64,000 nt of DNA. Origin: Candidatus Poribacteria bacterium (GTDB lineage: Bacteria > Poribacteria > WGA-4E > PCPOR2b). Positions 7,173-60,293 of this stretch are shown piece after piece; position 1 is the stretch's first letter; each line of letters starts with the position of its first letter. The notes under the pieces were generated by a model that was not told where the DNA came from, did no database searches, and saw only the letters and a list, made by a program, of their open reading frames with translations. The DNA is taken from the NCBI GenBank assembly GCA_965204355.1, contig OZ241983.1, positions 500,483 through 564,482 on the forward strand. Direction: 5' to 3'. A program made the translations under genes and the position numbers.

Positions 7173-7194
7173 CAGTACTACCTCCTAGGCGAAT

Positions 7195-7563: not shown

Positions 7564-7601
7564 TGGTTGTTACCTTCCTGAGTTTAACCGTGTCTTCCGC
7601 T

Positions 7602-8106: not shown

Positions 8107-8113
8107 CGTTTAA

Positions 8114-8521: not shown

Positions 8522-8566
8522 CAACATTTTATGTACTCCTTCTGATTCACACTCGCGAACAAGCGT

Positions 8567-9424: not shown

Positions 9425-9495
9425 TAAAACCTCCTCATCAAAATTCAGTTAGGCAAAGGTTGCGGAGCGGCGGAGGTAAAGGAATATACATCATT

Positions 9496-9861: not shown

Positions 9862-9972
9862 GTCAAGAATCTCCTAAATTAGCTTGAGCATTTGTACTAA
9901 CTTCCGCTCATCATCTCGATTTCTCAACGGGGGAGTACAAGAATCGAGTTTGTTTTAGCAGTCGAGTATATT

Positions 9973-22415: not shown

Positions 22416-23831
22416 TCAAGAATTGACCTTAAAGGCGTATAGATGAGCGTTTTGTAGATCGAACTTCAGACGTATTGTTTTCCCAATTAAAGGTGCTAGG
22501 TCGGCATGATTTGCCCATCTGGGCTGTAGTTGCAGTTCGTCCATGCCTTTGATATCTTGGCATACCGCTTTGGCGAAACCGGGAATCTGCCTGCCCACTG
22601 CGTCCAGGATCTCTACGGAAATCTGTCCTTGAGAAGTATCGGTGTTGAGCTCAAGCTGACTACCTTCCAGTTTGAATGGTTTGGTCGTGACCATGCCCGG
22701 AGTTGAGTCAGCTTCCAAAGACATGAATCTGTCCAGTCGCAAGGTCGCTAGCCCAATCGACATCCGGTTTTCTAAGTCTTTATGGCCTTTATCCATCGCT
22801 CCGTAGTACAGCCAATGGCGGTTCTTCCACGTCACAATCTGCGAGAAGGGAAATGCTCCCGCCGCATCGAAGCTGCCTTTCGGACCAGGAGGAATGAACG
22901 GTTCGCCCGCATAGACCCAACTTAAGTCCCAATGAGAAGCATCACGACTCGTACCGATATAACAATCGATTAAGCCCCCGGTCCGTAGCACGCTCATCAG
23001 GGCGAAGTGAACGCCTTGGTACATCCAGTCTGTCAGTGCGTAAATTTGCCGCCGTTTGTATTCTGAATCTCCCTCGCGGTCGAACTCCCAGCTTTGAATC
23101 AGTGTCCACCCTGTTGGATCCGCTTTCACGTCAGGATTGGTCATGGTGCGGCTGCCGCGACTTATCTTTCGGTCATCTCCCTCAGCAGGTCCGGCGTAAA
23201 TATCGCGGGTGAAGATCCTGTACACTTTCGCATCCCTGTCCCAATTCATCTGATTATGCGTGTCCGATGCGGTGACGTAATTTCGCCCTTCGATTTGGGG
23301 GTGAGGGATCGCGGTTCGGGACAATACAGTCTTTCCGTTGTTGTAGGCTGTCCACTGGATGCCGTCTGGAGAATGGGCGAGATGAACCGCCTTCTGACTT
23401 TTTTCCCAGCGACCGGCGGGGCCGTATGCCCCCTTGTACCTGTGATTCGGGTCTTTCTCATTCTGATCGATAAAACAACTGAAACCGTGTCCTCGAAAAA
23501 CAAAGTTACCCCTACCGTCCTTCCCCACGTTCGGTCGTTTCCACTGGATGCCATCTTCGGACTCGGCATATCCGATGTCGTAGTTGGGTCTGTTTGTCGC
23601 TAGATACCACATCTTGAATTTGCCATCGTCTCGCAGCACAGTTGAATAGACGCCAAAGTAGAGGGGATATTCCCGCTCATTGGGCACCATGAGCGGTTGG
23701 GCTTCCTTCGTAACTGTTCCCAGCCGACGGGCGACATTTGACCTCTCAGCAACGATGTAATCATCTACGAAAAGCTGTTTCCGCTTACCTATTCTCAGAG
23801 GTTCTTCGACCTTGGTGTTTTCAGCTGTCAT
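22416..23831 (-). CDS. putative glycoside hydrolase-like beta-propeller protein with C-terminal beta-sandwich (GH32/GH43/GH130-superfamily-like)
   Basis: 471-aa ORF. Repeated Trp/Asp-rich blades (DGIQWKRP, DGIQWTAY, HWDLSW) and a C-terminal beta-sandwich-like segment. Family assignment is tentative. Confidence 0.35.
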   Translation of the reverse strand: MTAENTKVEEPLRIGKRKQLFVDDYIVAERSNVARRLGTVTKEAQPLMVPNEREYPLYFGVYSTVLRDDGKFKMWYLATNRPNYDIGYAESEDGIQWKRPNVGKDGRGNFVFRGHGFSCFIDQNEKDPNHRYKGAYGPAGRWEKSQKAVHLAHSPDGIQWTAYNNGKTVLSRTAIPHPQIEGRNYVTASDTHNQMNWDRDAKVYRIFTRDIYAGPAEGDDRKISRGSRTMTNPDVKADPTGWTLIQSWEFDREGDSEYKRRQIYALTDWMYQGVHFALMSVLRTGGLIDCYIGTSRDASHWDLSWVYAGEPFIPPGPKGSFDAAGAFPFSQIVTWKNRHWLYYGAMDKGHKDLENRMSIGLATLRLDRFMSLEADSTPGMVTTKPFKLEGSQLELNTDTSQGQISVEILDAVGRQIPGFAKAVCQDIKGMDELQLQPRWANHADLAPLIGKTIRLKFDLQNAHLYAFKVNS

Positions 23832-24289: not shown

Positions 24290-25258
24290 TTAAGAAATTG
24301 GGCGTCCTTCTCCCGTATCCGTTTCGCTCTTAAAGTCTGTGTACTTACAAAGATGCTGCAGGAATTTCTCTAATTCGTGTAAGTCTATGTCATACTCACA
24401 ATGGTCTTTTGGAGAAATAACAATTGTCAATTTTTCAGCAAATTTCTTTTCCGAACATGCTGCAATAAACGATTGAATAATCTCTCTAATCATTTTCTCT
24501 CTTTGCACGTTTACCCTAGCACGGCCCGTGCCTAAAACAGGTACTATAAGATTTCCGAGTTCACCTTGTTCCCCAATATGATTCCAGAGTTTACCTAGGC
24601 ACTCTACTATTTCTTCAAATGAGCCATCGGGTACGCCATGTTCATTCGTATCGGCAATTGCAATCCAATAAGCCATTTGGCCTTTGGGTTTTAACCCAAC
24701 GACAGTGCCAATCTCGTAACGCTTTTGTTTTCCTTTTCTGTTATCTTCAACCAAAGTAAAACTCTGATTTTCTAACTTTTGTTCTAATTCATAATCAAGA
24801 TGTTCTACCGCGTTATAGTACCTCTGCGTAAATTGTCCCTGTAAACTGTCTGCAGAAATCAAGCCTCCTGATATATCAGTATCGAATGTCGTATTTGTGC
24901 TTATAACAAATACCCCATCCTCAATATTAAAAATATCGTCAACTCGAATTTCTATTAACACATCGGTTTCACCTAGCTTCTCGCTTACCGGAAGCATCTT
25001 TGGTTTCTCGCTTACTAAAGGCATCTTTGCGCGTTTTCGAAGTAAGCGGGCAATACCTACAAATGCTCCAACTACAATAATCACGACAAGCATTAGGAGG
25101 TTACCACTGGACCGTTCGTCAAACGCAGTAACGAAATGAGATAGTAGTTCAATTGCTACCCAAATCGCGCTATAAAAATAGCACGCTGTGCGTATCACTA
25201 GCCTGTACTGTCGGTAATTTTTCAAGTGATTTCTAGTAAGAAAACGAGGTAATTTCAT
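24290..25258 (-). CDS. thsA: Thoeris ThsA-like effector, type II architecture (two N-terminal TM helices + C-terminal Macro-like domain)
   Basis: 322-aa ORF. Two hydrophobic helices (LVIRTACYFYSAIWVAIELLSHFV and LLMLVVIIVVGAFVGIARLL) are followed by a Macro-like domain (VFVISTNTTFDTDISGGLISADSLQG... and LIVPVLGTGRARVN, resembling macro VNAAN..GGG and PxIxTG loops). It overlaps the upstream ThsB gene by 4 bp. Confidence 0.6.
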   Translation of the reverse strand: MKLPRFLTRNHLKNYRQYRLVIRTACYFYSAIWVAIELLSHFVTAFDERSSGNLLMLVVIIVVGAFVGIARLLRKRAKMPLVSEKPKMLPVSEKLGETDVLIEIRVDDIFNIEDGVFVISTNTTFDTDISGGLISADSLQGQFTQRYYNAVEHLDYELEQKLENQSFTLVEDNRKGKQKRYEIGTVVGLKPKGQMAYWIAIADTNEHGVPDGSFEEIVECLGKLWNHIGEQGELGNLIVPVLGTGRARVNVQREKMIREIIQSFIAACSEKKFAEKLTIVISPKDHCEYDIDLHELEKFLQHLCKYTDFKSETDTGEGRPIS

Positions 25259-25758
25259 AATCCCAATTCAGTGTAAAGGGTTTGCTTGTAATAATACGGA
25301 CCAGATTTTCCTTGTTGCTTATAGTGATCGTGACTCGCTGACCAATTATCTAATGCATGCTGTACAATAGCAGCATTAAAACTGACATAGACGACCAGTT
25401 CATCACGTATTATGGGTGGACACCTGACAGAATCTTGTTGTCTGAGTCCATTCAAATTAACACCAATTATCGGGATATCTAAAGATAACGCTTGTTCCAT
25501 CTCCCACCGTACAAACCGATAAAGATATCGTGTATTTTCCCCAATTAAGACTACCATAATTTTGCTGTTTTTCAATCTTACCCGGAGCCGCTGCCTAATT
25601 GACTCTGTTAAACTTGTGTCCCGCCCAGTATTTAAATCGTGAGCATCAAAGAAGTTGAAGGAAAAGCCATCATTTTGCTTCCAAGCCTTCATCAACCAGT
25701 AATAGCGTATATCGGTGTCACCATCAAAACACACGTATGTTTTGTTTCTGTAAGGCAT
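25255..25758 (-). CDS. thsB: Thoeris ThsB, TIR-like domain protein (DUF1863/MTH538 TIR-like)
   Basis: 167-aa ORF. KTYVCFDGDTDIRYYWLMKAW...FDAHDLNTGRD...IMVVLIGENTRYLYRFVRWEMEQALSLDIPIIGVNLN aligns motif-for-motif with Bacillus cereus ThsB (FFSFHYQD...FDASLWED...VTCVLIGSQTFNRRWVRYEI...IIGIHIN). Confidence 0.8.
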   Translation of the reverse strand: MPYRNKTYVCFDGDTDIRYYWLMKAWKQNDGFSFNFFDAHDLNTGRDTSLTESIRQRLRVRLKNSKIMVVLIGENTRYLYRFVRWEMEQALSLDIPIIGVNLNGLRQQDSVRCPPIIRDELVVYVSFNAAIVQHALDNWSASHDHYKQQGKSGPYYYKQTLYTELGL

Positions 25759-25845
25759 AATATCGCCTAATTTCCTTTCTAAATTGGATGTCAGAAATCA
25801 TTTCCGCAGTATCGCATAGTAGCGGTATTGTTTCCTGATTGCACT

Positions 25846-26202
25846 TCATTTCAACTGCTTGGCAATTGGAACTATGTCTTCGTCTGGTATTTGAGAAAGT
25901 TTCATAAGATTGTAAAGATAATCACCTATTCTATGGAGGGTCATATCACTAGGTCTTACACTCCTCATTCTAGACAGAACATTTCGTTCAAAAGTAATAG
26001 TATCTGATTTAAAGTGAATATATTCCTTGCTATAAAGATCGCTGCATTCATAAAGTACTTGATAGAGATTTTCTTCAATCCTTGCATACTCACGGTAATT
26101 ATTATCGCGCAACTCGTAGGCATCTTTTAGTATACAAAGTTTTAGTATGCATAGTTGTTGGTAAGTTAGTTGCTCTGCAGCCTTTATGAGTTGGTGTGCC
26201 AT
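25846..26202 (-). CDS. hypothetical protein (defense-island resident, no recognisable domain)
   Basis: 118-aa ORF, AT-rich codon usage like the neighbouring Thoeris genes; I recognise no motif. Confidence 0.4.
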   Translation of the reverse strand: MAHQLIKAAEQLTYQQLCILKLCILKDAYELRDNNYREYARIEENLYQVLYECSDLYSKEYIHFKSDTITFERNVLSRMRSVRPSDMTLHRIGDYLYNLMKLSQIPDEDIVPIAKQLK

Positions 26203-26221
26203 GTGTGGGCTGATTGCCGGA

Positions 26222-26655
26222 TCAAAGGCAATGCTTGAAAGTAAATTCGATTTTGTTTTCTTTTGGCTCTCTTTGAGCTTTCAATAATATGCTTTCTGCA
26301 ACTTCTTCCGCATCTGATCTACCCGCTGGTTTTTCATCGAAAAAACCATCCTCACGGAGACTTTCGCCGGTTTCTTTCCGTTGGTGAATGTCCGCAGCTG
26401 CAATTGCAAGTACAGCACCCACCCGAACTTTTTCTCGTGTTCCGAGTTGCCGTTCCGCAATTTCCTGCCCAACTTTGCTTAACGCAATTTCGATCCCCTT
26501 ACCACCAATTGCGCCAATTACTGCTCCGCCTGGTCCCGCAATAAGCCCTTCGATCGCTGCACCAGTAGCGGCACCGGCACCACTACCAAGAAGTTCTGCT
26601 CCGTGGTGGAAAGTTGCTGGAGGCCATCGTTCGTTTCTATCTTTCTTTCAGATGT
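26222..26655 (-). pseudogene. possible frameshifted small glycine-zipper membrane protein gene
   Basis: An in-frame Gly/Ala/Ile-rich segment (LLGSGAGAATGAAIEGLIAGPGGAVIGAIGGKGIEIA...) lies upstream of the called GTG-start ORF and has no ATG/GTG/TTG start. An ATG-started 47-codon ORF in another frame precedes it, suggesting a frameshift. Confidence 0.25.
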
Positions 26656-26692
26656 CATAGACACTATCGGGTCTTCTTTGCCGTTCGTCGGA

Positions 26693-27304
26693 TTATTGCC
26701 CTAGAGAGGAACCTAAGCCTGAATCTCGGTCAAACTTTGATACAAGAAAATCTACATCGTCCGGAGTTAGATCTGGAAATTCCTTGATTATATCGTCTTT
26801 AGTTATATCTCGGAGTGAGGGCTGATGCTCGCGCAGTCTGCGAACGCAGTGTTTGTCCTCGTCAAGGCGGGGTTTGATTATTGCCAACGCATGTTGATAA
26901 CTGGAAAGGCATGGAGTCCAATGAGACTGGGCAAACTCTTTCTTCATGTAGTGGGCCGCAAAGTAGCAAGCAACTCCTTCTTCGAAATTATTGGCGTTTC
27001 GCCCTCCGCTCGGTGAGAGTAAATGAACTGCTTCATGCGCCATTTGATAGCACGCCCGCGACATACTTGTACCAGCTGAAAAATCAAGTTGGATCACGAT
27101 ATGACAGCGATTTCCAGGATACCATATTTGGGGGCCATCGGACGCAAACTCTATACCGAGGATGGTGTACGAGTTGTCACGCGGTCCGAATAATTCCTCA
27201 GCCATGTGAAGCATATCACCAAGTCGAGAAGCCAACGTCCATGTGTAGCCCCTCCCATTGGCTAGACGTTCTGCAATTATTAAATTCTCCCTAATACCCT
27301 GCAT
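26693..27304 (-). CDS. HExxH-motif putative zinc metallopeptidase (ImmA/IrrE-like?)
   Basis: 203-aa ORF with CYQMAHEAVHLLS (HEAVH = HExxH). It lies 3 bp downstream of the Abi-alpha-like gene. Confidence 0.4.
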   Translation of the reverse strand: MQGIRENLIIAERLANGRGYTWTLASRLGDMLHMAEELFGPRDNSYTILGIEFASDGPQIWYPGNRCHIVIQLDFSAGTSMSRACYQMAHEAVHLLSPSGGRNANNFEEGVACYFAAHYMKKEFAQSHWTPCLSSYQHALAIIKPRLDEDKHCVRRLREHQPSLRDITKDDIIKEFPDLTPDDVDFLVSKFDRDSGLGSSLGQ

Positions 27305-27307
27305 ACA

Positions 27308-28117
27308 CTACGTTCCTTCGGTTTTGAGGTTTTCGGCCGCTAGCGCGTTGGAAACTGATTTGGGAATTCCTTCAATCTCAGGGGAAAAATCGTCTGTGAG
27401 CAAGAAGTTAAGATCTTTATCGCCGTGTCCAAATGCCCATAGTAACAGTTCGGCCCCTAATGCACTAGGTGTACATATAAACCCACCGCTAGGAACACCA
27501 CTGAACAGGTCCTTGAGAGACTCTTGAGGACCAAATCTCCAATCGTTGTCTATGAGACCATCTCCATTGAGGCCATGAAAAATATGATTTAACATTTGGC
27601 GATTATCCCATTCTGGTTGTGTGAACTCCATAGCTTCCGCATAATTTTGAAGTGGCATGAATAACTGCATTTTTCTCCTATTTTCATGCAAGTTAAAGCT
27701 ATTTCCACTGTTCGAGAACAATTCTGATATGGTGGAGTAAATGAGATAGTGTGATCGCAATTGGTATGCTGACATGTTGTCGATCATCTTCGCTAATCGC
27801 GCTCCTCTATCATCTCGACCTACCTCAGTCCTTGATGATGCTAAGACTCCACCAAAATACTCTACAGCAACAGTATCCTCAGCATATGAACCCTCATTAA
27901 GTACTGTTTTGAAAACTTTGGGAGGAATTCGTCCGGGTCTATTCAATTTATCACCAAGTTTTTCTCCTGCGTTTAAAAGAATCTTATCTGCGTTCTCCTT
28001 CCGCTTTCTTTTCCATGCTAAAAGATCTTCTCCGTAGTCTTCCGCGATTGGTCCTAGTAGTTTTATTACAATATCACCAATAGTCCCTGATAGCCCTGTG
28101 CTAGAAGTTTCTGACAT
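27308..28117 (-). CDS. Abi-alpha (DUF4393)-like abortive infection candidate
   Basis: 269-aa ORF. The N-terminus IVIKLLGPIAEDYGEDLLAWKRKRKENADKILLNAGEKL resembles, from memory, the conserved N-terminal motif of Abi-alpha family proteins. Co-oriented and almost abutting the HExxH gene. Confidence 0.35.
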   Translation of the reverse strand: MSETSSTGLSGTIGDIVIKLLGPIAEDYGEDLLAWKRKRKENADKILLNAGEKLGDKLNRPGRIPPKVFKTVLNEGSYAEDTVAVEYFGGVLASSRTEVGRDDRGARLAKMIDNMSAYQLRSHYLIYSTISELFSNSGNSFNLHENRRKMQLFMPLQNYAEAMEFTQPEWDNRQMLNHIFHGLNGDGLIDNDWRFGPQESLKDLFSGVPSGGFICTPSALGAELLLWAFGHGDKDLNFLLTDDFSPEIEGIPKSVSNALAAENLKTEGT

Positions 28118-28196
28118 TTTAATATCTCCTACAAAAGTTAATAACTAAGATGAGTAAATCCGCCATTCCCGATAAGAGATTTGGGTTGTTCGGGTT

Positions 28197-29108
28197 CTAC
28201 TTCATTTCCTCATTGGCTTTTGCCAGAAAGAGAATGTTTGATGCAGTCAAGTGAAGGGCGTATGCAGCCATGTATTCCGGAACGGGGATCACTTTGGAGC
28301 CCTGCCCATGTCCCGACTGGCGATTGCGAGCAGTGGGAAGCCCAGATTCCAGTGTACTTCTGAGACTCGTAAAGTGTGACTGCATGTAATCTGGAATTAA
28401 TTTTCTATCAAATATAACCCCAATCAGACGACTGGCGGTATCTGTTTCCTTATATTTCCACCGCCTCGTTGCACAAATCGCTTTCATACAACTCTCAAAT
28501 GCCTTGAGACATTCGTTCATACATGCTTCGTAACTTTTCGCTCGATAGTGCTTGTGCGCTTTCAGAAATTCGTCATTTGCCCCTTCGTACATCGGATCTG
28601 AAAGCATCTTCAGTGCAGGCTTCATTGCTTCAGAATGGATGAACTCAGAATCAACTCGGACTATTTGACCTGATTCATACTGATACCCAACGCCACGTTC
28701 TCGGAACCAATAATTTAATTGTGCAATTGCCTCGTCGGGTGAAATGCGGCTGTAGCGTTGATCCATATATCGGAATGAAAGTTCAATGACATCAATTGCC
28801 TTTTCTGCTTCCTCTGTTTGAAGGAAAAAGTTGTGGACTGAGTCAAAATCAGAATCATGGGGGCCGCCAAGGCCTAGCGTGCCATAATGGTAGCTCAGAG
28901 TTTTGTGGATAAACTCGTATGCCACGGCAGTGTCGCTAGGATAGTAGAGTCCTCCCATGCTACTATGTTCAGTCTCCCCAAAAGCCTCCTGCCAGATGTG
29001 GATAACCTGAACTCGTAATTCTTGGGGAATCGTTTCGTATTGATATACGTCTGGAACTTCGCCTCGGAGACGCTTTTGACGCTTTGAGAAAAGATCAAAA
29101 ACTGACAT
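28197..29108 (-). CDS. HEPN-domain protein (Rx4-6H motif), AbiJ/Abi-like abortive infection candidate
   Basis: 303-aa ORF. The C-terminal region has the HEPN signature RNRQSGH (R-x5-H) in a predicted helical context, TARNRQSGHGQGSKV. Confidence 0.45.
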   Translation of the reverse strand: MSVFDLFSKRQKRLRGEVPDVYQYETIPQELRVQVIHIWQEAFGETEHSSMGGLYYPSDTAVAYEFIHKTLSYHYGTLGLGGPHDSDFDSVHNFFLQTEEAEKAIDVIELSFRYMDQRYSRISPDEAIAQLNYWFRERGVGYQYESGQIVRVDSEFIHSEAMKPALKMLSDPMYEGANDEFLKAHKHYRAKSYEACMNECLKAFESCMKAICATRRWKYKETDTASRLIGVIFDRKLIPDYMQSHFTSLRSTLESGLPTARNRQSGHGQGSKVIPVPEYMAAYALHLTASNILFLAKANEEMK

Positions 29109-29126
29109 ACTATTCTACTCCTTTTA

Positions 29127-29162
29127 ATAAAAAAGGCAGCTCCCGATTGTTAGGGGCTGCCT
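29127..29162 (-). terminator. putative Rho-independent terminator after the MTase-HNH gene
   Basis: On the minus strand, the stem GGCAGCCCC...GGGAGCTGCC is followed by a run of seven T. It sits ~20 nt upstream of the HEPN gene's SD (AAGGAG) and start. Confidence 0.5.
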
Positions 29163-29420
29163 CCTGAGTGTTGAAAAAATATTTGCCTTTTTTGCACTAT
29201 TTATGCTAAAATCCTAAAAATAGAGGGGTAGAGACCATAAAATCCTATGCCTCTCGGCAAATTGGAGCGCCCACTCCAGTTTGTTTAACTATCACAGGAA
29301 CCCGGCTTAAACGCCGGGTTTTCTGTTTCCATTCTAAAGAAAATGGTAACATTAATTTTCGTCAAACGCAAGTGCGATTGAAGGTAATGATTCCTATGTA
29401 ATGATCCTGAATACTCAAAC

Positions 29421-30845
29421 TTAATTCCTTTTTAACCTCACCCGCAGCTCAGCAACTGTGCCTGTTCCCTTCAGTGAATTGCAAGCCCCACACAACAGCC
29501 ATAAATTCTCAAAATGATCTGTCCCACCCTTACTTCGCGGAATCTTGTGGTCAATCGTCAAATTGCGAAATGGGAAGTGAATCTCGCACCCGCCACATAT
29601 CCCCTCTTGCAGCCCATACAGTGTGTGCTTATGCGTTCGGGCAGGCGGTATATCGCTCATGTCAGTGCGCTGTGGATAGTCGTCGCGGTGGACAATCTCT
29701 GGGAATAAGCCTTGATCTGCTTTGATACGTTCTACCACCAACTCGGCTGCCTTTGATGAAATATCAATCCCTACCCATCTCCGCTGCAACCGGTCTGCTG
29801 AAACCAATGTCGTGGCACAGCCACAGAAGGGATCAAACACAACATCACCGGGGCTGCTACTAGCTTTGATGATGTGCTCTAGGAGAGCAAGAGGTTTCTG
29901 TGTGGGATAGCCGGTACGTTCTTTTCTACCTGGACCTTTGACTTCAGCGATTATATCTTGCAATGCACGCCCCTGACTCGCATCTAGATATCTCTTGAGT
30001 CTTGGCATTGTTCCGTTATTGGGCCAATAAATGAGATCCGCTTCATTGAGGATATCTAGGCGGTCATGCACACTTGTTATTTGCCTGTAATTTGGGATGA
30101 AGTGTTTTTCGATATATTCGGCATAAGCGCCGGTGCGCGGCGGTCTCCAGTGATTCCCAACTGTAGTAGGATCAATGTTACGCCACGGTTGTCCGGACTC
30201 CCCTTGTCTTGGTCCTGATGCTGTGAGATCGCTAGCACTATATCGACCACGAGCATCTTTATTACGGTAGTATTTTTTGACGTACTCCGGATCATGCGCT
30301 TCATACTGTGTGTGCCATGTCGCCCCTTCACCCCTGACATAATAAAGGAGGGTGTCGTGGATGCGCCCAAATCGATTCGGATCGTTGTGAGTTGAGGTCC
30401 GCTTCCAAACAATTTCATTCCGAAAATTATCAGCGCCAAAGATACTATCCATCACCAACTTCAGGTAATGAGAGGCGGTCGGGTCGCAGTGTAGATAAAT
30501 GCTCCCCGTGTCTTTCAGGATACGCCCCATCTCCAGTAGACGGGTAGACATCATAATGAGGTAGCTTTGCATGCCTTTGCCGTGTGTTTCGCGTGCTGCT
30601 TGTATCACGGTGTGGAGGGATGGGGCTTGTTCAGCAAGTTCGCCGTGTTCAGCGATATCAATGTCGTTGAGGGTCCAAGTATCTTTGAAGGCGGCACCGG
30701 CGGCTCGGCTGCCAATGGGGGCGGCATAATTGCGGTTAGAATTAAAGGGTGGATCGAGATAAATCAGATCGACGCTATCGCTATTCATCCCCCGCATAAT
30801 GTGCAAGTTATCACCGATGAAGATGGTTTTGTCTTTCCAGTTCAT
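29421..30845 (-). CDS. DNA amino-methyltransferase (beta-class, N6-A or N4-C) fused to C-terminal HNH endonuclease domain
   Basis: 474-aa ORF. Motif IV DPPF (DLIYLDPPFNSN) precedes motif I (VFDPFCGCATT) and TGYPTQKP. The C-terminal HNH has CGGCEIH...IDHKIP...HFENLWLLCGACNSLKG. Confidence 0.7.
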   Translation of the reverse strand: MNWKDKTIFIGDNLHIMRGMNSDSVDLIYLDPPFNSNRNYAAPIGSRAAGAAFKDTWTLNDIDIAEHGELAEQAPSLHTVIQAARETHGKGMQSYLIMMSTRLLEMGRILKDTGSIYLHCDPTASHYLKLVMDSIFGADNFRNEIVWKRTSTHNDPNRFGRIHDTLLYYVRGEGATWHTQYEAHDPEYVKKYYRNKDARGRYSASDLTASGPRQGESGQPWRNIDPTTVGNHWRPPRTGAYAEYIEKHFIPNYRQITSVHDRLDILNEADLIYWPNNGTMPRLKRYLDASQGRALQDIIAEVKGPGRKERTGYPTQKPLALLEHIIKASSSPGDVVFDPFCGCATTLVSADRLQRRWVGIDISSKAAELVVERIKADQGLFPEIVHRDDYPQRTDMSDIPPARTHKHTLYGLQEGICGGCEIHFPFRNLTIDHKIPRSKGGTDHFENLWLLCGACNSLKGTGTVAELRVRLKRN

Positions 30846-31504: not shown

Positions 31505-32383
31505 ATGATTAAACTCGGTTGTAATAGCTTGGTGAAGGATAGAGACAATCCCGGTGGGTGGATCGATATTGAGACGATGATTGATTTAATTCATACGTTG
31601 CGGCTCGATATCATTGACTTTCAACTTGATAGAGGATTTCGTTCGCTAGAACCGGCGTATCTTCGCAAGGTCAAGATTCTGTGCCATAGGTATGGATTGC
31701 CGATAGGTTTCATAGGCGCTGGCAGTGGGTTTGTTAGCGCTGCTCAACTGCCGAATGGGGATGTGGTTGGTGTGGGGCTATCGCCGGACGAGTTACAACA
31801 ACGGATTGATGAGGTCAAGAGAGCGGTGGATGTTGCCGTCTTCATGGGTGCCCCGCTGATTCGTCTGTTTGGCGGAGGGGTGCCTGAAGGGACGGAGAAC
31901 CGCGAGGCGGTGTGGTCAACGATGATCTCCGGGTTCCAAGCGGTTTCCGACTACGCAGCTGAGAAAGGGATCCTTATCGGTCTTCACAATCATCCGCCGG
32001 CTGTGGAGCCGACGAGCGATGATATCTTCCGCATCCTGAACGACGTTGACCGTGAGAACTTTACTTTTATCTTAGATACGGGTCGGTGGCGCGGTGCACC
32101 GACAAGTAGGGAAAAGACTTCCGATTCAAGTGAAAATATCTACAGATACATGGAGCAGACCGCGCCTTACGCTTCATACGTGCGTGCTAAGATCTATAAG
32201 GTTGATAGCGGTCAGGAGGAGTTACTCGACTATAGACGTATTATTGCTATTCTCAAGAAAGCAAACTTCAACGGAAATATGTCGATTGTTTACGAGGACC
32301 AGGGCAATCAGTGCGATTACGCCGAAGCCATTGGGTTGGCGGTCAAACATTTACGGGGGTTGCTCGCAGAATCGGAGGAGTGA
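31505..32383 (+). CDS. sugar phosphate isomerase/epimerase (xylose isomerase-like TIM barrel) family protein
   Basis: SD AAGGGAGGG precedes the ATG at 31505. The translation (MIKLGCNSL...IGLHNHPP...IVYEDQGNQ) fits the AP-endonuclease-2/xylose-isomerase-like TIM fold. The ORF-track start at 31334 is probably too early. Confidence 0.55.
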   Translation: MIKLGCNSLVKDRDNPGGWIDIETMIDLIHTLRLDIIDFQLDRGFRSLEPAYLRKVKILCHRYGLPIGFIGAGSGFVSAAQLPNGDVVGVGLSPDELQQRIDEVKRAVDVAVFMGAPLIRLFGGGVPEGTENREAVWSTMISGFQAVSDYAAEKGILIGLHNHPPAVEPTSDDIFRILNDVDRENFTFILDTGRWRGAPTSREKTSDSSENIYRYMEQTAPYASYVRAKIYKVDSGQEELLDYRRIIAILKKANFNGNMSIVYEDQGNQCDYAEAIGLAVKHLRGLLAESEE

Positions 32384-32389
32384 GAAGGG

Positions 32390-34414
32390 ATGGCCTCAAC
32401 CCAAACGCGTGAAATTCCGTGGACGGACATAGGGGAACCGCTGGCGGATCTGCTTCGGTACGAACGCAGGATTGGTCACTACGAACACGCAGGTTACGCT
32501 TTACTGTCAACGGTTGTCCATGAGACAGCGGATTCGGCGTGGCGGCAATTCCTATTGGTGGGGGATAATTTTGCTGAAGTGGCCGGGCAGGTCATCGCTA
32601 TATCCGATAGAGAGTCCAAAAATCCCAAACAGGTTCTTGACTCAATCCGCTCACTTGTCGATGCGGCTTACGCCCAGGCGCCGGAAAGAGCAGGGCAGTT
32701 CCTGAAACCATACCTGAAGCACAGGCCGAGTTTCCCGGATCCTATCCGAGAGAGGTTGGACGCACTCTCAATGCGGGGGAAACGCCGGATCCCCCTTCGT
32801 GCAACTGCTTTCGCAGCGGAGATGGAGCGTCTTCGACCGTTTGAGCCGTACAGTGATGTAGCAGAAGCGGTGTCCGAACATTGGTACGAACAGATTCTGC
32901 AAGGGAGCATAACCGCCCGCCAAGTACGCAGGATACCGGCGCGGATACTCACCGCGAAAAAACGCTTGCTCAACCATCTGCGTGAGGTTGAGGGGGATAG
33001 CGTGATTGATGAGGAAACCCTCTTTGGCAGGTATGCAGGTGTTTTTCAGTCAACCGATATCTTGGGGCTGACGGACGTTATCGTTGAGATACCTCGTTTC
33101 AATCTGATATATCGCTTTCATGTCGAGTTCGGTGTAGCAGAGATTGGGCTTTTCTTGAGAAACTTTCCGACGGCGGAGGTACTCAACCGTTTTGAGAAGT
33201 TAGAGGGGTGGATGGGTAAATACCACAAGACAAATCACGATGGCACAATACTAACTCCACCGCTGATTAATTTTCTATCGCAGCAAGCGGATTTTGATTC
33301 CCTTCTAATTGAACTAGACCGATATCGAGCGGATACGCGGAACGGACGATTTGACGTAACCAACATTTTGCAACGGGATCTGGAATTCAGACGCTTCGTC
33401 TACGAGTACACACGGGTGCTGGAACCGCTGACCTATGAACTCCAAGGCAGATATCCGCCGCTGAAGTCGCATAAGGAGTTGTACCGATTATTCAACCAAC
33501 TTGAAGAACTACCGCCGGTTACCGTTGATGCGCCTGATTTGAGCGAACAACATCTCGCAGAAGTCGGTCGAACTGCATACGAAGCTGTGGAGTTTCTCAA
33601 GTTTTTGAGAGGGTTCCAAGCGCGTACCAGCAGGCATATTGTGGTAGTGGGGAACGACCGTTACGGACGACAGTGGGTTGTGGAACCTATCGAAGCGTAT
33701 CTCAAAGAGGGGTTTACGCTTAGGTATGACCGTGTCCGCTCCGGGACATCTACAAGGTTGAGTGTACCCTCCGCTTTCCCAAGGGAATTTGTCAAAGAGA
33801 TTAGTGAACGGATGCCTCATATTGTCATTGTTGACGCGTCCCATGCGCCGCCGGATACCGATGTGATGCAGCTTTCCCGCGGTCTCCGAGGCTATGCCCA
33901 CTGGTTTGCTGCCTTCAACGACATTCGCGCGGAAGGCGATCTTGCCAGATACCGGGATGAGAGTTCACTTCCCGCGGAGCATTTTCCCGAACTTATGAAA
34001 TGGCACGACTACGTTGCACGGAGAGGACAGTTACGGGAATGGGTTTCGCCGGGGCAGACTTACCGGGTGACGACTTGGGCACCGGAGTTGAAAGACACCG
34101 TAATATTGGGCGACATGCGAGTGAAGCGGTATCCTCCGGTCTCCCATGAGGAGATAGGGGGCGACTTACCGATGGTGATTCTGGCAAACCCTATAATATA
34201 CCGCACAGAGGGTGAGGACCTGCCAGATGCGCTGCGGGGCACCACACCACGCCACTTCGATGACCCTGAAGCCCATGCAGTGGATAGTGTTGTGTTCGGA
34301 TTTGGCTCCCACGGACTTGAAACCCGACTTGAGGGAATGAGCACAGAACAGTTTGTCCAGATCGCTCAGGGACACATCAAGAAGGAGATCGATAGGCTGT
34401 TAGAAGAATCGTAA
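32390..34414 (+). CDS. large hypothetical protein (674 aa), no recognisable domain
   Basis: Long uninterrupted ORF, 6 bp after the isomerase stop and 12 bp before the BKACE gene. Codon usage is host-like; I recognise no motif. Confidence 0.5.
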   Translation: MASTQTREIPWTDIGEPLADLLRYERRIGHYEHAGYALLSTVVHETADSAWRQFLLVGDNFAEVAGQVIAISDRESKNPKQVLDSIRSLVDAAYAQAPERAGQFLKPYLKHRPSFPDPIRERLDALSMRGKRRIPLRATAFAAEMERLRPFEPYSDVAEAVSEHWYEQILQGSITARQVRRIPARILTAKKRLLNHLREVEGDSVIDEETLFGRYAGVFQSTDILGLTDVIVEIPRFNLIYRFHVEFGVAEIGLFLRNFPTAEVLNRFEKLEGWMGKYHKTNHDGTILTPPLINFLSQQADFDSLLIELDRYRADTRNGRFDVTNILQRDLEFRRFVYEYTRVLEPLTYELQGRYPPLKSHKELYRLFNQLEELPPVTVDAPDLSEQHLAEVGRTAYEAVEFLKFLRGFQARTSRHIVVVGNDRYGRQWVVEPIEAYLKEGFTLRYDRVRSGTSTRLSVPSAFPREFVKEISERMPHIVIVDASHAPPDTDVMQLSRGLRGYAHWFAAFNDIRAEGDLARYRDESSLPAEHFPELMKWHDYVARRGQLREWVSPGQTYRVTTWAPELKDTVILGDMRVKRYPPVSHEEIGGDLPMVILANPIIYRTEGEDLPDALRGTTPRHFDDPEAHAVDSVVFGFGSHGLETRLEGMSTEQFVQIAQGHIKKEIDRLLEES

Positions 34415-34441
34415 TCTTACAATGATTTGGAGGAACCGATT

Positions 34442-35263
34442 ATGGCAAAAACTATTATCTCGGTAGCGGTGGTGGGGTCGGGACCTACCAAGGAGATGAA
34501 TCCTGCCGTACCGTATACGCCCAAAGATATTGCACAAGCGGCGATTGAGTCGAGCCGAGCCGGTGCGTCGATCGCGCACATCCATGTGCGCGACCCTGAA
34601 ACAGGGATCGTATGTTCAAGGCTTGAACTCTTCGCGGAGGTTGTAGATCGAATCCGCCAAGAGTGCGACATCCTGATTAATCTCACAACGAGCGGGGGGA
34701 ATATACCCGGAAAAAACATCATTGAGGAACGGCTTGAACCTGTTACACTAAAACCTGAAATCTGTTCCCTTGATGTCGGTTCCTTGAACTTTGGGGATCG
34801 CATGTTTCTCAACCCGCCGGAGTGGGGACGGGCTGCTGCGCAACGGATGCGCGAACAGGGGGTCAAGCCGGAAATCGAGGTCTTCGATGCGGGACACATA
34901 CGGCAGGCACTGCACCTAATTGATGAGGGGCTGTTTGAGGATCCACCGTATATCCAATTGTGCATGGGAGCGGGTTGGGGTATCGAGGCGACGCCGGATA
35001 ATATGCTGTTCATGCAGAAGTTATTGCCGCCCGATGTTCCTTGGTCCGTTATGGGTGTGGGTCGAACACAGTTGCCGATGATTACGATGGGCATTATTCT
35101 AGGAGGGCATATCCGCGTCGGGTTTGAGGACAATATCTATCTCCGCAGGGGCGTACTGCTGAAGAGTAATGCCCAGATGGTCGAAGTCGCCGTGAATTTG
35201 GTTCAGCAGCTGCAAGGTGAAGTTGCAACACCGGGCGACGCACGTGAAATTCTTGGGATATGA
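34442..35263 (+). CDS. beta-keto acid cleavage enzyme (BKACE / 3-keto-5-aminohexanoate cleavage enzyme family, DUF849)
   Basis: [32 protein letters not shown]...[10 protein letters not shown]...LINLTTSGG... matches the Kce/BKACE TIM-barrel family pattern. Confidence 0.7.
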
Positions 35264-35449
35264 GCGAAAACGTGAAACGTGAAAAAGAAAAATCAACGGA
35301 CTTTGGGTTTTCAGATGGTGCGAGGTTCTGTTGATATTCTGATGTTAGCAATTCGGCAAACCCTATAATCATCGGGCAATCTGCAAGATGTAACGCAAAC
35401 TGTTAGTTTGCGTGCTGGGATCACAATCTAAACGAAGATTAATTTATTA

Positions 35450-36343
35450 ATGAGGTTTATTCGTCTGATGTTACGAGCAAAGGGTTCACTGGATTTCTTG
35501 GAGGGGGTCACGGAAGAGACTGTTGAGTGGCGGATGCTTAATATGGACTCCGAGCTAATCACAGCCAATCTGAGTCGCACAATCGGTCCCGGCATTCATA
35601 GTACCCTTGATCCTCATTGGAATTATAACGCCAAACGCGGCGATGGAGTTGTTCCGCTTAATAACATCTTGAGATTTGAAACCTTTGGCGATCGTTGTCC
35701 TTTGGGGACGAAGTTGCGACAAGAAACGCGGTTACGGTTGGTGACAACACGGGACGAGGACGGGAGGTTGAAACGCGGCCATTTGGCGATGAACTGCGAA
35801 TTGTTCAGCAAAGATGTCGAGTCTCAACCACAAATCGGACGCGCCGAATTTTGGATGGCGCTGACCCGGCCGCTTGCTCCTCCGGGTCAACATAGACCAA
35901 CCGATGTGCCGGAGGCGATCCGGTTCTTGAAGGAGCATAAAGCGGTCAAAAGCGATCTGGTCAGTCGGGATATCGAGTCATACCGCTGCGAGGCAGCCGA
36001 TGATGGACGAGCCTTCCATGACACGATGCCGTTGGCTTTCCACATGGACCGGTCGGATATCTACCGTCACATTAATACGGCTGTGTATATGAACCAAGCG
36101 CAGGATTATCTTGCACTCCTGTACCACAAGGGCGGTGGGGATGCTGGACGGCTGCGGTTCCGCGAGATCACTATCTATTTTCGGAAACCTTTTGTGCCGG
36201 GACAGATAGCGGAGGTGGAGTTGGATTTTGTCGAGTATGCAGACCATTTCCACGGCGCTGTCCGTTTCTATCATTCTGACAGCGAAGGGAACAGAAGTGA
36301 GCGGATTTCCGTGGCGATGGAGACGCGCGGACCCCTACATTGA
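35450..36343 (+). CDS. hotdog-fold thioesterase-like protein (acyl-ACP/acyl-CoA thioesterase family?)
   Basis: 297-aa ORF, the right size for two hotdog domains; DIYRHINTAVYMNQAQDYL resembles the thioesterase HVNNxxY motif. The start is uncertain. Confidence 0.3.
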   Translation: MRFIRLMLRAKGSLDFLEGVTEETVEWRMLNMDSELITANLSRTIGPGIHSTLDPHWNYNAKRGDGVVPLNNILRFETFGDRCPLGTKLRQETRLRLVTTRDEDGRLKRGHLAMNCELFSKDVESQPQIGRAEFWMALTRPLAPPGQHRPTDVPEAIRFLKEHKAVKSDLVSRDIESYRCEAADDGRAFHDTMPLAFHMDRSDIYRHINTAVYMNQAQDYLALLYHKGGGDAGRLRFREITIYFRKPFVPGQIAEVELDFVEYADHFHGAVRFYHSDSEGNRSERISVAMETRGPLH

Positions 36344-36554
36344 AAACCCACTAGAGGCGAAGCAGACACGAATCTATTTCACCGCAGAGGCACAGAGCTG
36401 ACAAGAAGACGAGAGAACGAGGAAGCGAGGAGGCGAGTAAAAACCCGTTCCCTCACATACACGCTTCCCCAATCCTCCGTGCTTCCAATCTTCCATCCAT
36501 CTGCTCTGTGTTTTCCGCGTCTTAGTGGTTGATTTTAGATTGAGGAGAAAGACA

Positions 36555-38114
36555 ATGAAGTACGACACAATCATCGTCGGAGCGGGGGCGGCTGGGGCGA
36601 TACTTGCAGCTCGACTCACCGAAGATCCGGGCCGATCCGTCCTGCTGCTGGAGGCGGGTCCTGACTTCCCAGAGGTTGATCAGCTTCCGGATGAGATCAA
36701 GTACGGTTATGGACGAGACCGCAATATCTGGGCTCGCGCTTTTGGTCGTCCGACCAAATTCGGTTGGGACTACACCGCCCGTGCCACCGATAGTGCGCCC
36801 ACCATGTTCGTCCCACGCGGCAGGATAGTTGGCGGCTCAAGCGCGGTGAACGCACAGATCTTCCTCCGCGGTGTGCCTGAAGACTATGATAGTTGGGCTT
36901 CCTTGGGCAACGACAAGTGGAGTTACGAGGAGTTGCTTCCTTGCTTTCGCAGGAATGAGGCGGATCCCGACTATAGCGATTCTTATCACGGGAATGCGGG
37001 TCCCATCCGCGCTCGGCGGCACACATACGAGGAGTTGAACCCTGAACAAGCTGCTTTCTACGACGCTGCTCTGGCTGCTGGCTATCCAGATTGTCCCGAC
37101 CACAACGACCCGGATTCCACGGGAGTGGGTACACTCGCGCTCAATAATCCGGACGGTATCCGCTGGAGCACTGCAATCGGTTACCTCAACCCAGCACGTC
37201 ATCGCCTGAACCTTACTATTAAAGCGGATTGCTTGGTACACCGTCTCCTCTTTGAGGGCAAACGTGCTGTTGGCGCTCAGGTGGAGAGTGGTGGCGAGAT
37301 GTTTGATGTCTATGGTGAGGAGGTCGTTTTGGCTGGTGGATCTATCGGTTCGCCGCATATCCTAATGCTTTCCGGTATCGGACCCGCTGATCATCTCCGG
37401 ACTATTGGCATTCCTGTGACCCACGATCTACCGGGCGTTGGACAAAACCTGAGAGACCATCCACAGGTGTCGGTCACGTTGAGGGTAAAGGATGCGTTTC
37501 TGCCCGATGGCACAGAGCCACGGCTACAGATTGGACTCCGGTACACGGCGCAGGGTTCCGACCTACGCAATGATATGTTTCTGCTCCCGACCGCTTTTGC
37601 TACCGAGGAAGGGTATCTTGTGGAATCGGACTCAGTGCCTTTGGGATTTCACGTTGCTGCGTGCATATATTTAGCCGCTGGTGCGGGCGAAATCCGGCTC
37701 GCCTCTTCCGATCCACATCAACAACCTCTCTTGGACTATAACTATCTGACAGAGTCCTTTGACCGTGAACGGCTGCGCGAATCTGTGCGGATCATCATTG
37801 ATCTGCTCGAACACGATGCGTTCAGGCAATTGGTTGCGGAACGGCTTGCACCCACAGATGCTGATCTGGCGACGGATAGGACCTTAGACGAGTGGCTGCT
37901 GCGGCAGGTAAGTACCAGTCATCACATCTCATCGACGTGCAAGATGGGACCGGATTCTGACCCGATGGCGGTGGTTGATCAGTACGGTAAGGTCTACGGC
38001 GTCGAAGGGCTGCGGGTGGCGGACGCTTCGATTATGCCCGACTGCATCCGCGCCAATACCAACGTGACGACTATGGTTATTGGAGAGCGTATATCGGACT
38101 TTATGATAGGCTGA
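36555..38114 (+). CDS. GMC family FAD-dependent oxidoreductase (choline dehydrogenase-like)
   Basis: MKYDTIIVGAGAAGAILAARLTEDPGRSVLLLEAG (GxGxxG FAD fold) and a C-terminal GMC region (HISSTCKMGPDSDPMAVVD). Confidence 0.85.
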   Translation: MKYDTIIVGAGAAGAILAARLTEDPGRSVLLLEAGPDFPEVDQLPDEIKYGYGRDRNIWARAFGRPTKFGWDYTARATDSAPTMFVPRGRIVGGSSAVNAQIFLRGVPEDYDSWASLGNDKWSYEELLPCFRRNEADPDYSDSYHGNAGPIRARRHTYEELNPEQAAFYDAALAAGYPDCPDHNDPDSTGVGTLALNNPDGIRWSTAIGYLNPARHRLNLTIKADCLVHRLLFEGKRAVGAQVESGGEMFDVYGEEVVLAGGSIGSPHILMLSGIGPADHLRTIGIPVTHDLPGVGQNLRDHPQVSVTLRVKDAFLPDGTEPRLQIGLRYTAQGSDLRNDMFLLPTAFATEEGYLVESDSVPLGFHVAACIYLAAGAGEIRLASSDPHQQPLLDYNYLTESFDRERLRESVRIIIDLLEHDAFRQLVAERLAPTDADLATDRTLDEWLLRQVSTSHHISSTCKMGPDSDPMAVVDQYGKVYGVEGLRVADASIMPDCIRANTNVTTMVIGERISDFMIG

Positions 38115-43728: not shown

Positions 43729-45426
43729 TTATCTTGTCCCGTTCCGAGGACTCCGATGAATCGGAGGGATTACCGGTAATGTGATGTGAGAAGGGTATTG
43801 TGTGTTATGATAGATTGTCTGATGCGCCACCTCAATTTCGGTGTCCAGTCCCGGCGTGCTGCCGGTGTTTTGGTTCCGGTCAAAGCGCGGGAAGTTGCTA
43901 CTGGAGACTTCGACGCGAATTTGGTGCCCCGCCTTGAAGAGATTGCTTGTTTCCCAGAGTACAATCTTGTAGACACAGATGGTTTCGGGTTCAATCAGTG
44001 TTGGCTCTTCATAAGAATTGCGAAATCGCGCCCGCACAATGCCTTCGCAGATATTGATCGCTTTCCCGCCCGGATGCACATCGACAAGCGTTGCAGTGAA
44101 GTCGGTATCTGGCGCGGTGGAGGCGGCATAGAGCGTTAGTTCAATCTGTCCTGTAACTTCTAAATCCTCGGTGAGCGGGGGTGTTGAATAGACTAATACA
44201 TCGTCTCGGCGTTCCACAGATCGCCGGTCTTGTGGCCCCGTGTTATCAATAAACATGCTCTGACCGCCCACGGTGGGGACGGGATTTTCGGGATCATAGG
44301 TGAAAGAATCTGTTGGTTCGTTTTGTGGCGGTTGAGCGGTCAGCTCGCCATCGCCGTGGAGGGAGTTGGCGCGTCCCCCGCTGTGCAAATAAAACTTAGT
44401 GTATTGCGTCCGTGCGGGGGGCCACTCGTGCTCGTGGCGCCAGATATTCGCTCCCATCACAAAGATTCGGATAGGTGGCTCGTCGTCGATCCCGGTGTCG
44501 ATTCCTTTTAGTCGTTGATCGTACCAACGGATGTGCGCGTCCGGAATATCCACCATTGCGTTTGAACCGAAGTCGATGTCACCGAACGGCTCGGCGCTGC
44601 CGATTGCGGTATGCGTCCACGGACCCACGAGGAGTTTTGTTTTCGATCGAGTTTCCGGGGTTCGGGCTTGTGTCGTCCACCCGGTGAAACACTTGAAGCC
44701 TTCGTGCACGAGATTATCGTACCATCCGGTGATAAAATATGCGGGTGTGTCTACGTCGGAGTATCTATACTTCATGCTGTAGGATTTCCAGAAATCATCA
44801 AAGGCGTTGTGTCGGATCACCTCTCGATAGAACGGACGATCACCGATGCTATCAAGGGCAGAAATTAGCGGCAACCGCCGGTAGACCTCCTCCCAATCAA
44901 TTAGATCTCTCGGCGCGTTCTGGTTTGTGCGGTCGCCGAGCCAGATGAAGTTCATGGCGTTCTGGAGTTGTAGCACACCGTTATACCGCATGTGGCCGTA
45001 GTTGTCCTCTTGGTTGGCGATCGGGACGAGCCCCTTGACGTAGGGGCTGCGGAGCGCTGCTGGTAGAATCTGGGTAAATCCGGGATAGGAAATGCCGAAA
45101 GTTCCGATATTTCCGTCACACCACGGTTGAGTGCCCAACCACTGTTGTGTGTCGTAGCCGTCGTTGGTCTCGTCGATGTAGGGTCGCCACACCCCCTCTG
45201 AATCGTAGCGTCCACGGGAGTCCTGCATCACCACTGCGTAGCCGCTTTGTGCGAAGCGCACCGCCCAATCCACATACCGCGGGTGTTGGGTGCTGTAGGG
45301 AGATCGGATGAGCAGGGCAGGGAACTTATCGCCTACAGCCGGACGGTACAAGGCACCGTAGAGCCGGACGCCATCGCGCATGGGAATTTTGAGATCTAAC
45401 TGGATGCGGAGATTGTGGTTTGACAT
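43729..45426 (-). CDS. CocE/NonD family hydrolase (X-Pro dipeptidyl-peptidase S15-like)
   Basis: 565-aa ORF: ...IPMRDGVRLYGALYRPA...LLIRSPYSTQ... plus a C-terminal beta-sandwich domain. Confidence 0.8.
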   Translation of the reverse strand: MSNHNLRIQLDLKIPMRDGVRLYGALYRPAVGDKFPALLIRSPYSTQHPRYVDWAVRFAQSGYAVVMQDSRGRYDSEGVWRPYIDETNDGYDTQQWLGTQPWCDGNIGTFGISYPGFTQILPAALRSPYVKGLVPIANQEDNYGHMRYNGVLQLQNAMNFIWLGDRTNQNAPRDLIDWEEVYRRLPLISALDSIGDRPFYREVIRHNAFDDFWKSYSMKYRYSDVDTPAYFITGWYDNLVHEGFKCFTGWTTQARTPETRSKTKLLVGPWTHTAIGSAEPFGDIDFGSNAMVDIPDAHIRWYDQRLKGIDTGIDDEPPIRIFVMGANIWRHEHEWPPARTQYTKFYLHSGGRANSLHGDGELTAQPPQNEPTDSFTYDPENPVPTVGGQSMFIDNTGPQDRRSVERRDDVLVYSTPPLTEDLEVTGQIELTLYAASTAPDTDFTATLVDVHPGGKAINICEGIVRARFRNSYEEPTLIEPETICVYKIVLWETSNLFKAGHQIRVEVSSSNFPRFDRNQNTGSTPGLDTEIEVAHQTIYHNTQYPSHITLPVIPPIHRSPRNGTR

Positions 45427-51008: not shown

Positions 51009-51125
51009 AGAGAGTGGCTCCTGAAATGCGAGTTTGTAAAGGTTACGGCACACGGCGTCGCGACAAATTGGGACGATAATCTGTGCCCTCTGTCTCATCC
51101 GTTGAATCCGCGATTTAGACAAAGG

Positions 51126-51210
51126 GAACATGTCGCCCCTCTGGGGCTTGGAAGGAAGGGCCTATCGCCCGGCTATAAACATATCGCCCCTCTGGGGCTA
51201 AATACCCCCA
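51126..51210. repeat. REP-like bipartite element, family B (copy 3)
   Basis: AACATGTCGCCCCTCTGGGGCTTGG-(N)-GGCTATAAACATATCGCCCCTCTGGGGCTAAATACC, between the giant gene's start and the AKR gene. Confidence 0.75.
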
Positions 51211-60259: not shown

Positions 60260-60293
60260 CTTGGGACAAACGAGTGGATGGAAGGAGGGAAAG

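Follow-up and report, generated by a model that had tools for sequence, protein, structure and literature searches.

Do five genes that follow each other on one strand, in an order kept among close relatives, make up one metabolic unit? The question is raised by a locus in the chromosome of a Candidatus Poribacteria bacterium, within a stretch of 64 kb with a GC content of 0.50 (hereafter the window), where genes for a TIM-barrel protein, an uncharacterised protein of 674 amino acids (aa), a β-keto-acid-cleaving enzyme of the BKACE (DUF849) family, a double-hotdog protein of 297 aa and a GMC oxidoreductase succeed one another. A preliminary description of this DNA took them for a single catabolic operon with a carnitine-like logic. 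What it observed is confirmed here and what it concluded is supported only in part: with a probability of roughly 0.6, we consider the locus to be a lineage-specific juxtaposition around one conserved module, formed by the BKACE gene (34427-35263) and the double-hotdog gene (35450-36343).

The arrangement itself was found exactly as described, with five plus-strand genes separated, with the starts chosen here, by gaps of 6, 12, 186 and 211 base pairs (bp), the tight packing being limited to the first three genes; the domain calls for the TIM-barrel, BKACE and GMC proteins were likewise borne out by Pfam. The TIM-barrel gene (AP_endonuc_2, 292 aa) occupies 31505-32383, its open reading frame (ORF) opening at 31334 and the start at 31505 being placed by homolog alignment, and it is followed by the ORF of the 674-aa protein at 32390-34414. 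For the BKACE gene the likely start is ATG 34442, five codons into the window ORF, where the homologs begin at MAK, and the 297-aa ORF begins at Met7 in databases (35468, giving 291 aa); both differences are minor. The GMC oxidoreductase gene (36555-38114) most likely starts at ATG 36555, which is preceded by GGAG, its ORF opening at GTG 36525. All five genes are intact and, as judged against 8 related genomes, under purifying selection, with ratios of nonsynonymous to synonymous substitution rates (dN/dS) of 0.03-0.16 overall: 0.03-0.05 for BKACE, 0.04-0.07 for GMC, 0.06-0.10 for the TIM-barrel protein, 0.08-0.16 for the 297-aa protein and 0.13-0.16 for the 674-aa protein. Between 30000 and 39000 Rfam recognised neither a riboswitch nor a leader, the sole match being a chance miRNA, and a scan for promoters and terminators gave counts not above those of shuffled sequence, uninformative on transcription units.

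The evidence that carries our reading comes from genomes outside the Poribacteria clade. Homologs of the 297-aa protein, with 50-68% identity, were located there in 13 instances, on contigs whose GC content ranges from 0.47 to 0.68, and in 11 of them a BKACE gene lies immediately upstream on the same strand, often at a spacing of ~10-90 bp, its product being 74-85% identical to the window BKACE. The pair-bearing loci (L022, L023, L025, L026 with two pairs, L027 and L033-L037) have otherwise unrelated flanks, which carry, from case to case, an MR_MLE enzyme, genes for a CDP-alcohol phosphatidyltransferase and threonyl-tRNA synthetase, a heparinase, sulfatase and GGT, or an HMGL-like lyase, and no homolog of the TIM-barrel, 674-aa or GMC proteins was found at any of them. 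Because the pair recurs without these three, the conserved functional unit would be the two genes and not the five. The element of the preliminary description that joined BKACE to a thioesterase-type partner is therefore upheld by conservation in many unrelated genomes. In L026 the pair is adjoined by an acetoacetate decarboxylase gene (9448-9948), and in L027 the HMGL-like gene lies near it; both fit acetoacetate as a product. The L026 locus carries its two BKACE and double-hotdog copies within 7 kb (1434-3249 and 7115-8870), in surroundings that include PhyH dioxygenases, a sulfatase and transposases.

The first member of the pair is assigned without difficulty, matching Pfam PF05853 over model positions 1-274 of 274 with E = 3e-101 and 338.8 bits against a cut-off of 24.8. 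Its relatives in the PDB are 9zsc, 3c6c and 2y7d, and its HxH and FEDN motifs line up with theirs; H51-I-H53 and E234 (of FEDN) fall on the same residues in 9zsc and 3c6c, and the HxH and this Glu are invariant in a 7-sequence alignment. By analogy with Kce, which cleaves 3-keto-5-aminohexanoate in lysine fermentation (PDB 2y7d), we take H51, H53 and E234 to be the Zn ligands. BKACE proteins have been described as Zn-dependent TIM barrels that turn a β-keto acid and acetyl-coenzyme A (acetyl-CoA) into acetoacetate and an acyl-CoA (PMC11961710). Kce shares with the window protein the fold family and the metal-site motifs and its model (NF052387) is the best-scoring one among characterised BKACE models, with a full-length match, yet the score of 302.4 bits stays below the equivalog cut-off of 382; the protein is likewise under the cut-off of all four NCBIfam BKACE equivalog or exception models, and plasmid-borne BKACEs of cultured bacteria are at most 48% identical to it. 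The window BKACE probably belongs to a distinct subfamily. A role in lysine fermentation was considered and rejected, given the score below the Kce cut-off and the absence of kamA, kamDE, kdd and kal genes near BKACE among the scanned window ORFs; a search of the sponge-symbiont literature for 3-keto-5-aminohexanoate found no mention of it.

The second member is less easily named. The 297-aa protein has no Pfam match at E ≤ 0.1 and no NCBIfam match, it matches no PDB sequence, whether as a single sequence or as a profile, and tblastn against plasmids gave no relatives. The Pfam searches that had been suggested for this protein and for the 674-aa one were thus carried out, with no match for either. 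The AlphaFold model of the 297-aa protein, built from a 20-sequence alignment, is nevertheless of good quality (pLDDT 90, pTM 0.87) and displays two hotdog halves, and a Foldseek search of the PDB places acyl-acyl carrier protein (acyl-ACP) thioesterases first (9mqf, FatA, 2ess, 2own and 4gak; E ~1e-12, TM 0.57-0.67). The top 40 matches, at E ~1e-12 to 1e-11, are all of this kind, with ACOT7, ACOT12 and LnmK ranking after them. In the same alignment H198, D200, D203, H207 and Y213 of the C-terminal hotdog are invariant and N209 is nearly so, within an invariant stretch D-x3-H-[IV]-N-x3-Y, whose D-x3-H-[IV]-N part resembles the catalytic region of acyl-ACP thioesterases from plants and bacteria; compared by eye, the fit to the D-x-N-x-H-V-N-N motif is partial, the Asn at +2 not being conserved. 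Some sources name the homologs "hotdog fold domain-containing protein" or "acyl-ACP thioesterase". With the acyl-ACP thioesterases of PF01643 (FatA/FatB, 2ess, 2own, 4gak) the protein has the double-hotdog architecture in common, but just 9-14% of sequence identity; its genomic partner is BKACE and not fatty-acid synthesis genes, and its expected substrate would be a short polar acyl-CoA instead of a long-chain acyl-ACP. The earlier designation as a hotdog thioesterase is therefore favoured by the fold and finds no echo in the known sequence family, and the protein represents a double-hotdog family not covered by Pfam or NCBIfam.

How would the two enzymes work together? From the chemistry of the family, the Zn-dependent BKACE would move the acyl part of a β-keto acid to acetyl-CoA, yielding acetoacetate and an acyl-CoA two carbons shorter, and the partner thioesterase would hydrolyse the shortened acyl-CoA, so that CoA would be recycled and the reversible cleavage pulled forward. 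The net reaction would convert a β-keto acid, acetyl-CoA and water into acetoacetate, the shortened acid and CoA. This logic would equal the conversion of dehydrocarnitine, through betainyl-CoA, into glycine betaine, the substrate in Poribacteria being left general. By this analogy, the core of the locus is likely a BKACE with a predicted thioesterase for the product acyl-CoA, comparable to the carnitine operon.

The usual thioesterase partner of BKACE in carnitine systems is a short single-hotdog protein of the 4HBT type, unlike the window partner, a double hotdog of ~290 aa without Pfam match. In Pseudomonas, the BKACE of carnitine catabolism converts oxidised carnitine and acetyl-CoA into acetoacetate and betainyl-CoA, and this dehydrocarnitine cleavage enzyme (PP_0303) is encoded beside a putative thioesterase (PP_0301) and an L-carnitine dehydrogenase (bioRxiv 10.1101/2021.12.09.472016). 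The placement of a thioesterase beside BKACE, and the logic expected from it, are common to both systems, a predicted thioesterase gene lying directly downstream of BKACE in the window as well. The dehydrogenase is not: no 3HCDH-type domain, characteristic of the NAD-dependent L-carnitine dehydrogenase, was detected in the ORFs scanned at 13-60 kb of the window, nor adjoining the pair in the loci of other lineages. The dehydrocarnitine cleavage enzymes make up ASMC group G5 of the BKACEs, whose gene contexts, according to the NetSyn preprint, outline carnitine degradation. From an ecological point of view carnitine is a plausible substrate, as sponge tissue contains it and its use has been proposed for guilds of symbionts (PMC9999580, PMC5649159); Slaby et al. 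placed the Poribacteria in a sulfated-polysaccharide guild and not in the carnitine guild. What can be transferred to other genomes is the pair as a variant of the already known association of BKACE with a thioesterase, with a partner family lying outside Pfam and NCBIfam.

The protein that first drew attention to the locus calls for separate treatment. The 674-aa protein had been described as devoid of any recognisable domain, and indeed it gave no Pfam, NCBIfam, PADLOC or PDB sequence match, either as a single sequence or as a 25-member alignment. An exhaustive HMMER search among 1.84 billion representative proteins yielded only 211 clusters at E ≤ 1e-3. Full-length relatives come from metagenome-assembled genomes (MAGs) of Poribacteria, Latescibacterota and Dehalococcoidia, the close ones being located on Poribacteria MAG chromosomes, and no relatives were found by a scan of the viral contigs of IMG/VR or by tblastn in the plasmids of PLSDB. 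The conserved module of the family, residues ~285-674, also occurs at the C-terminus of proteins of 800-1130 aa, which have no Pfam domain other than weak TPR matches, and in a protein of 4423 aa (P0373) it lies at ~2100-2407, preceded by HEAT repeats and followed by two HAD-like hydrolase domains and a SLOG domain (LDcluster4). In the AlphaFold model (pLDDT 89, pTM 0.63) residues 1-410 are all-helical and ~415-674 form an α/β domain weakly resembling a type I phosphoribosyltransferase (PRT); Foldseek of this model against the PDB returned nothing at E ≤ 1e-3, the top matches being TAL-effector-like helical repeats. Several polar residues are conserved across 66 family members (GNxRYG at 421-426, S451, D482, N510, N600, D624, E332 and E398), a pattern that suggests a ligand-binding or catalytic site.

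As for its genomic company, ten contexts of 674-aa homologs outside the clade share no neighbour among themselves or with the window, and BKACE is never nearby. Similarly, an all-against-all comparison of the ORFs around six distant homologs revealed no recurrent neighbour, the exceptions being a weak match between a 471-aa ORF of the window and an ORF of locus L029, and a class-III aminotransferase common to L011 and L021. We conclude that the 674-aa gene stands alone, its product belonging to an uncharacterised family of rare and patchy occurrence, and that it most likely has no connection with the BKACE pathway; a role in that route is not supported.

Could it then belong to sugar metabolism? 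The alternative that survives best, although unlikely, is that the 674-aa protein is a carbohydrate or sugar-phosphate enzyme, for instance a transferase dependent on phosphoribosyl pyrophosphate (PRPP) or on a nucleotide-sugar, which would form with the TIM-barrel protein a second module unrelated to BKACE. The gap of 6-10 bp between the two genes is kept in all Poribacteria loci, and four of the homolog contexts carry carbohydrate genes: in L029 a GH42-like gene lies 12 bp upstream and is accompanied by three BNR_2 sialidase-like genes, a transaldolase and an HpcH aldolase, in L017 a DHDPS/NAL-family gene lies upstream, L016 has a GHL10-like gene and L011 a DegT aminotransferase. The joining of the module to two HAD phosphatase-like domains and SLOG in the 4423-aa protein points in the same direction. 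Against this, no neighbour recurs by sequence across the contexts, and others are rich in insertion sequences (IS) or resemble mobile elements (L038, L030) or contain housekeeping genes (L021, L039). The expected binding motif is absent as well: a PRPP site comprises four hydrophobic and two acidic residues and then a Thr/Gly-rich loop, whereas the 674-aa protein presents IVIVDASHAPPD, with one acidic residue and no TG-x-T. The identity of the C-terminal domain as a type I PRT was consequently not accepted, there being no Pribosyltran Pfam match, no significant Foldseek match and no PRPP motif; type I PRTs and the PRPP-dependent polysaccharide ribofuranosyltransferases (7shg; CriT of Bcs3, 8a0c) give only weak matches.

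The TIM-barrel protein that precedes it is an AP_endonuc_2 member (PF01261, E = 1.7e-20), xylose-isomerase-like, and reaches no NCBIfam equivalog cut-off. In 17 Poribacteria loci an ortholog with 88-95% identity immediately precedes the 674-aa gene, and no such gene was found beside the 674-aa homologs of other lineages; the neighbour is lineage-specific, and the 6-bp gap couples it tightly to the 674-aa gene. At the other end of the locus, the GMC oxidoreductase (GMC_oxred_N, E = 8e-47; GMC_oxred_C, E = 1e-34) is choline-dehydrogenase-like and scores 418 bits with PRK02106 choline dehydrogenase, against a cut-off of 605. It also passes marginally the cut-off of TIGR03970 MftG (402.4 bits against 387.45), an identity that was not accepted, as the margin is small, the protein does better with the generic choline dehydrogenase model, and neither radical-SAM nor other mft-like genes appeared among the ORFs scanned in the window. 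GMC is likewise a lineage-specific neighbour, which the comparative data do not link to the pair; it could supply the oxidation of a β-hydroxy to a β-keto acid, a proposal for which adjacency is the sole support.

These assignments bear directly on the proposal from which the question arose, i.e., that all five genes constitute one catabolic operon for a β-hydroxy acid or quaternary amine such as carnitine, in which GMC would perform the oxidation, BKACE the cleavage and the hotdog protein the hydrolysis of the acyl-CoA, the 674-aa protein being a new enzyme or regulator. We regard it as rather improbable. Several observations speak in its favour: the five genes lie on one strand, the first three with a spacing of 6 and 12 bp, their order is kept in 16-17 Poribacteria genomes, GMC is of a choline-dehydrogenase-like type, an MFS transporter is encoded next door, relatives without the defence island described below have three divergent PhyH dioxygenase genes upstream, BKACE with a thioesterase is the logic of carnitine degradation, and carnitine is at hand in sponge tissue, with guilds proposed to use it. 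A conserved five-gene unit does not emerge from the comparison of neighbourhoods, co-occurrence being confined to one Poribacteria clade in which the entire region is syntenic. The order is kept there in 17 loci with identities of 85-97%, but synteny extends over a neighbourhood of ~25 kb, from the TIM-barrel gene to a Peptidase_S15 gene (43729-45426), and the convergent genes downstream, encoding the MFS transporter, a MetE-like protein, a Macro-domain protein, hydantoinase A and Peptidase_S15, are also kept; with the whole region syntenic, conservation of the five genes within the clade says little about function. (The gene at 43729-45426 had been considered as HydB, an identity rejected by domain search in favour of a Peptidase_S15/PepX_C hydrolase.)

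Even within the clade the arrangement is loose. The gap between the 674-aa and BKACE genes varies from ~15 to ~400 bp in relatives, that between BKACE and the 297-aa gene from ~50 to ~600 bp, and that between the 297-aa gene and GMC reaches 3.5 kb; in L004 an 894-aa WD40 gene is inserted between the last two. In a further Poribacteria MAG (L015, 8058-11134) the 674-aa gene has been split by an IS insertion, a 333-aa DDE transposase, the TIM-barrel, BKACE, 297-aa and GMC genes remaining intact around it, and this disruption, together with the lack of common neighbours elsewhere, is evidence against a five-gene unit. To this it must be added that GMC, the TIM-barrel protein and the 674-aa protein never accompany the pair in other lineages, nor 674-aa homologs BKACE, that a carnitine dehydrogenase of the 3-hydroxyacyl-CoA-dehydrogenase type is missing from the scanned window ORFs, that the Poribacteria fall outside the carnitine guild, and that BKACE scores best with the Kce model and remains under every equivalog cut-off.

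The last alternative, that the 674-aa gene is an isolated cargo gene, selfish or of the conflict or defence type, which came to lie beside a metabolic cluster, would explain the patchy distribution and the unconserved contexts, and agrees with the variable defence-island slot (24290-30845) a few kb away, with distant 1128-aa TPR relatives located among HicA/CopG, Xre-type helix-turn-helix, Replic_Relax and serine recombinase genes, with the L038 homolog flanked by three transposases and with the fastest protein evolution of the five genes (dN/dS ~0.14), but it is very improbable, given the lack of a PADLOC match and of viral or plasmid relatives, a stable position and ameliorated base composition in 16 Poribacteria genomes, and a dN/dS of 0.14 that still denotes clear purifying selection.

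The reading of the locus as a two-gene module with lineage-specific neighbours has its own weak points, which should be kept in mind. In two of the 13 instances (L024 and L032) the hotdog homolog has no adjoining BKACE. The number of independent lineages behind these instances is uncertain, horizontal transfer of the pair being possible. The thioesterase assignment draws on fold and motif only, with no PF01643 match, and LnmK, an acyltransferase/decarboxylase, matches the 297-aa model at a similar TM-score. Finally, the gaps of 6 and 12 bp make it likely that the TIM-barrel, 674-aa and BKACE genes are co-transcribed in this genome, so a clade-specific functional link among them is possible.

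A more far-reaching claim may be put forward tentatively, at somewhat short of an even chance: that at least one of two propositions is right, namely that the pair is an undescribed self-contained two-enzyme module of uncultured marine and sponge bacteria, or that the 674-aa protein founds a PRT-like enzyme family. The module, present in several lineages, would possibly trim a specific β-keto acid by two carbons without ATP, by means of a thioesterase family outside the profile libraries, and its substrate could possibly be host-derived and dehydrocarnitine-like. The new family would possess a divergent PRT-like catalytic domain with a nucleotide or phosphosugar ligand, would be horizontally mobile and would also occur in giant proteins, as a fusion with HAD and SLOG domains.

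The remainder of the window provides the setting of the locus. Upstream of the TIM-barrel gene, on the minus strand, there is a defence island of low GC (0.39-0.47) at 24290-30845, which comprises a ThsA-Macro gene (24290-25258) and a ThsB-TIR gene (25255-25758), Thoeris-like together, two ORFs without Pfam or PADLOC match (26693-27304 and 27308-28117), an AbiJ_NTD4 gene with DUF7014/HEPN (28197-29108) and an N6/N4 DNA methylase fused to HNH (29421-30845). This island fills a slot between the third PhyH gene or the 471-aa ORF and the TIM-barrel gene, the content of which differs among related Poribacteria; in some of them the PhyH gene or the 471-aa ORF directly abuts the TIM-barrel gene; being so variable, the slot behaves as an integration hotspot. 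Beyond it, also on the minus strand, lie three tandem PhyH-family Fe(II)/2-oxoglutarate dioxygenases (19169-20326, 20551-21492 and 21542-22384) and the 471-aa ORF (22416-23831), which has no Pfam match, is variably present among relatives, and is 24% identical over its full length to the L029 ORF mentioned above, situated 2.4 kb downstream of the 674-aa homolog and beside a TauD dioxygenase.

Further downstream, a minus-strand gene (46845-51131) encodes a protein of 1428 aa with leucine-rich repeats, cohesin, dockerin and FlgD-Ig domains and, at its N-terminus, a cytochrome c motif of the planctomycete type; eukaryote-like repeat proteins of this sort have been reported for sponge symbionts. 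Towards the end of the window, a plus-strand gene (60246-63485) for a 1079-aa protein with a caspase (Peptidase_C14) domain lies downstream of an ECF sigma factor gene (56065-56604) and of the gene for a CarboxypepD_reg/Plug protein (57036-59534).

Altogether, the locus teaches that a gene order kept inside one close clade should not be taken for functional linkage at the operon level. The 674-aa family is found neither in the profile libraries nor in the PDB and deserves an entry among the families of unknown function. For the BKACE family, whose substrates are mostly unassigned, a subfamily with an almost constant dedicated partner constitutes a clean target for substrate discovery, and the pair may be the sign of a nutrient drawn from the surroundings by sponge symbionts and by other marine bacteria not yet in culture.

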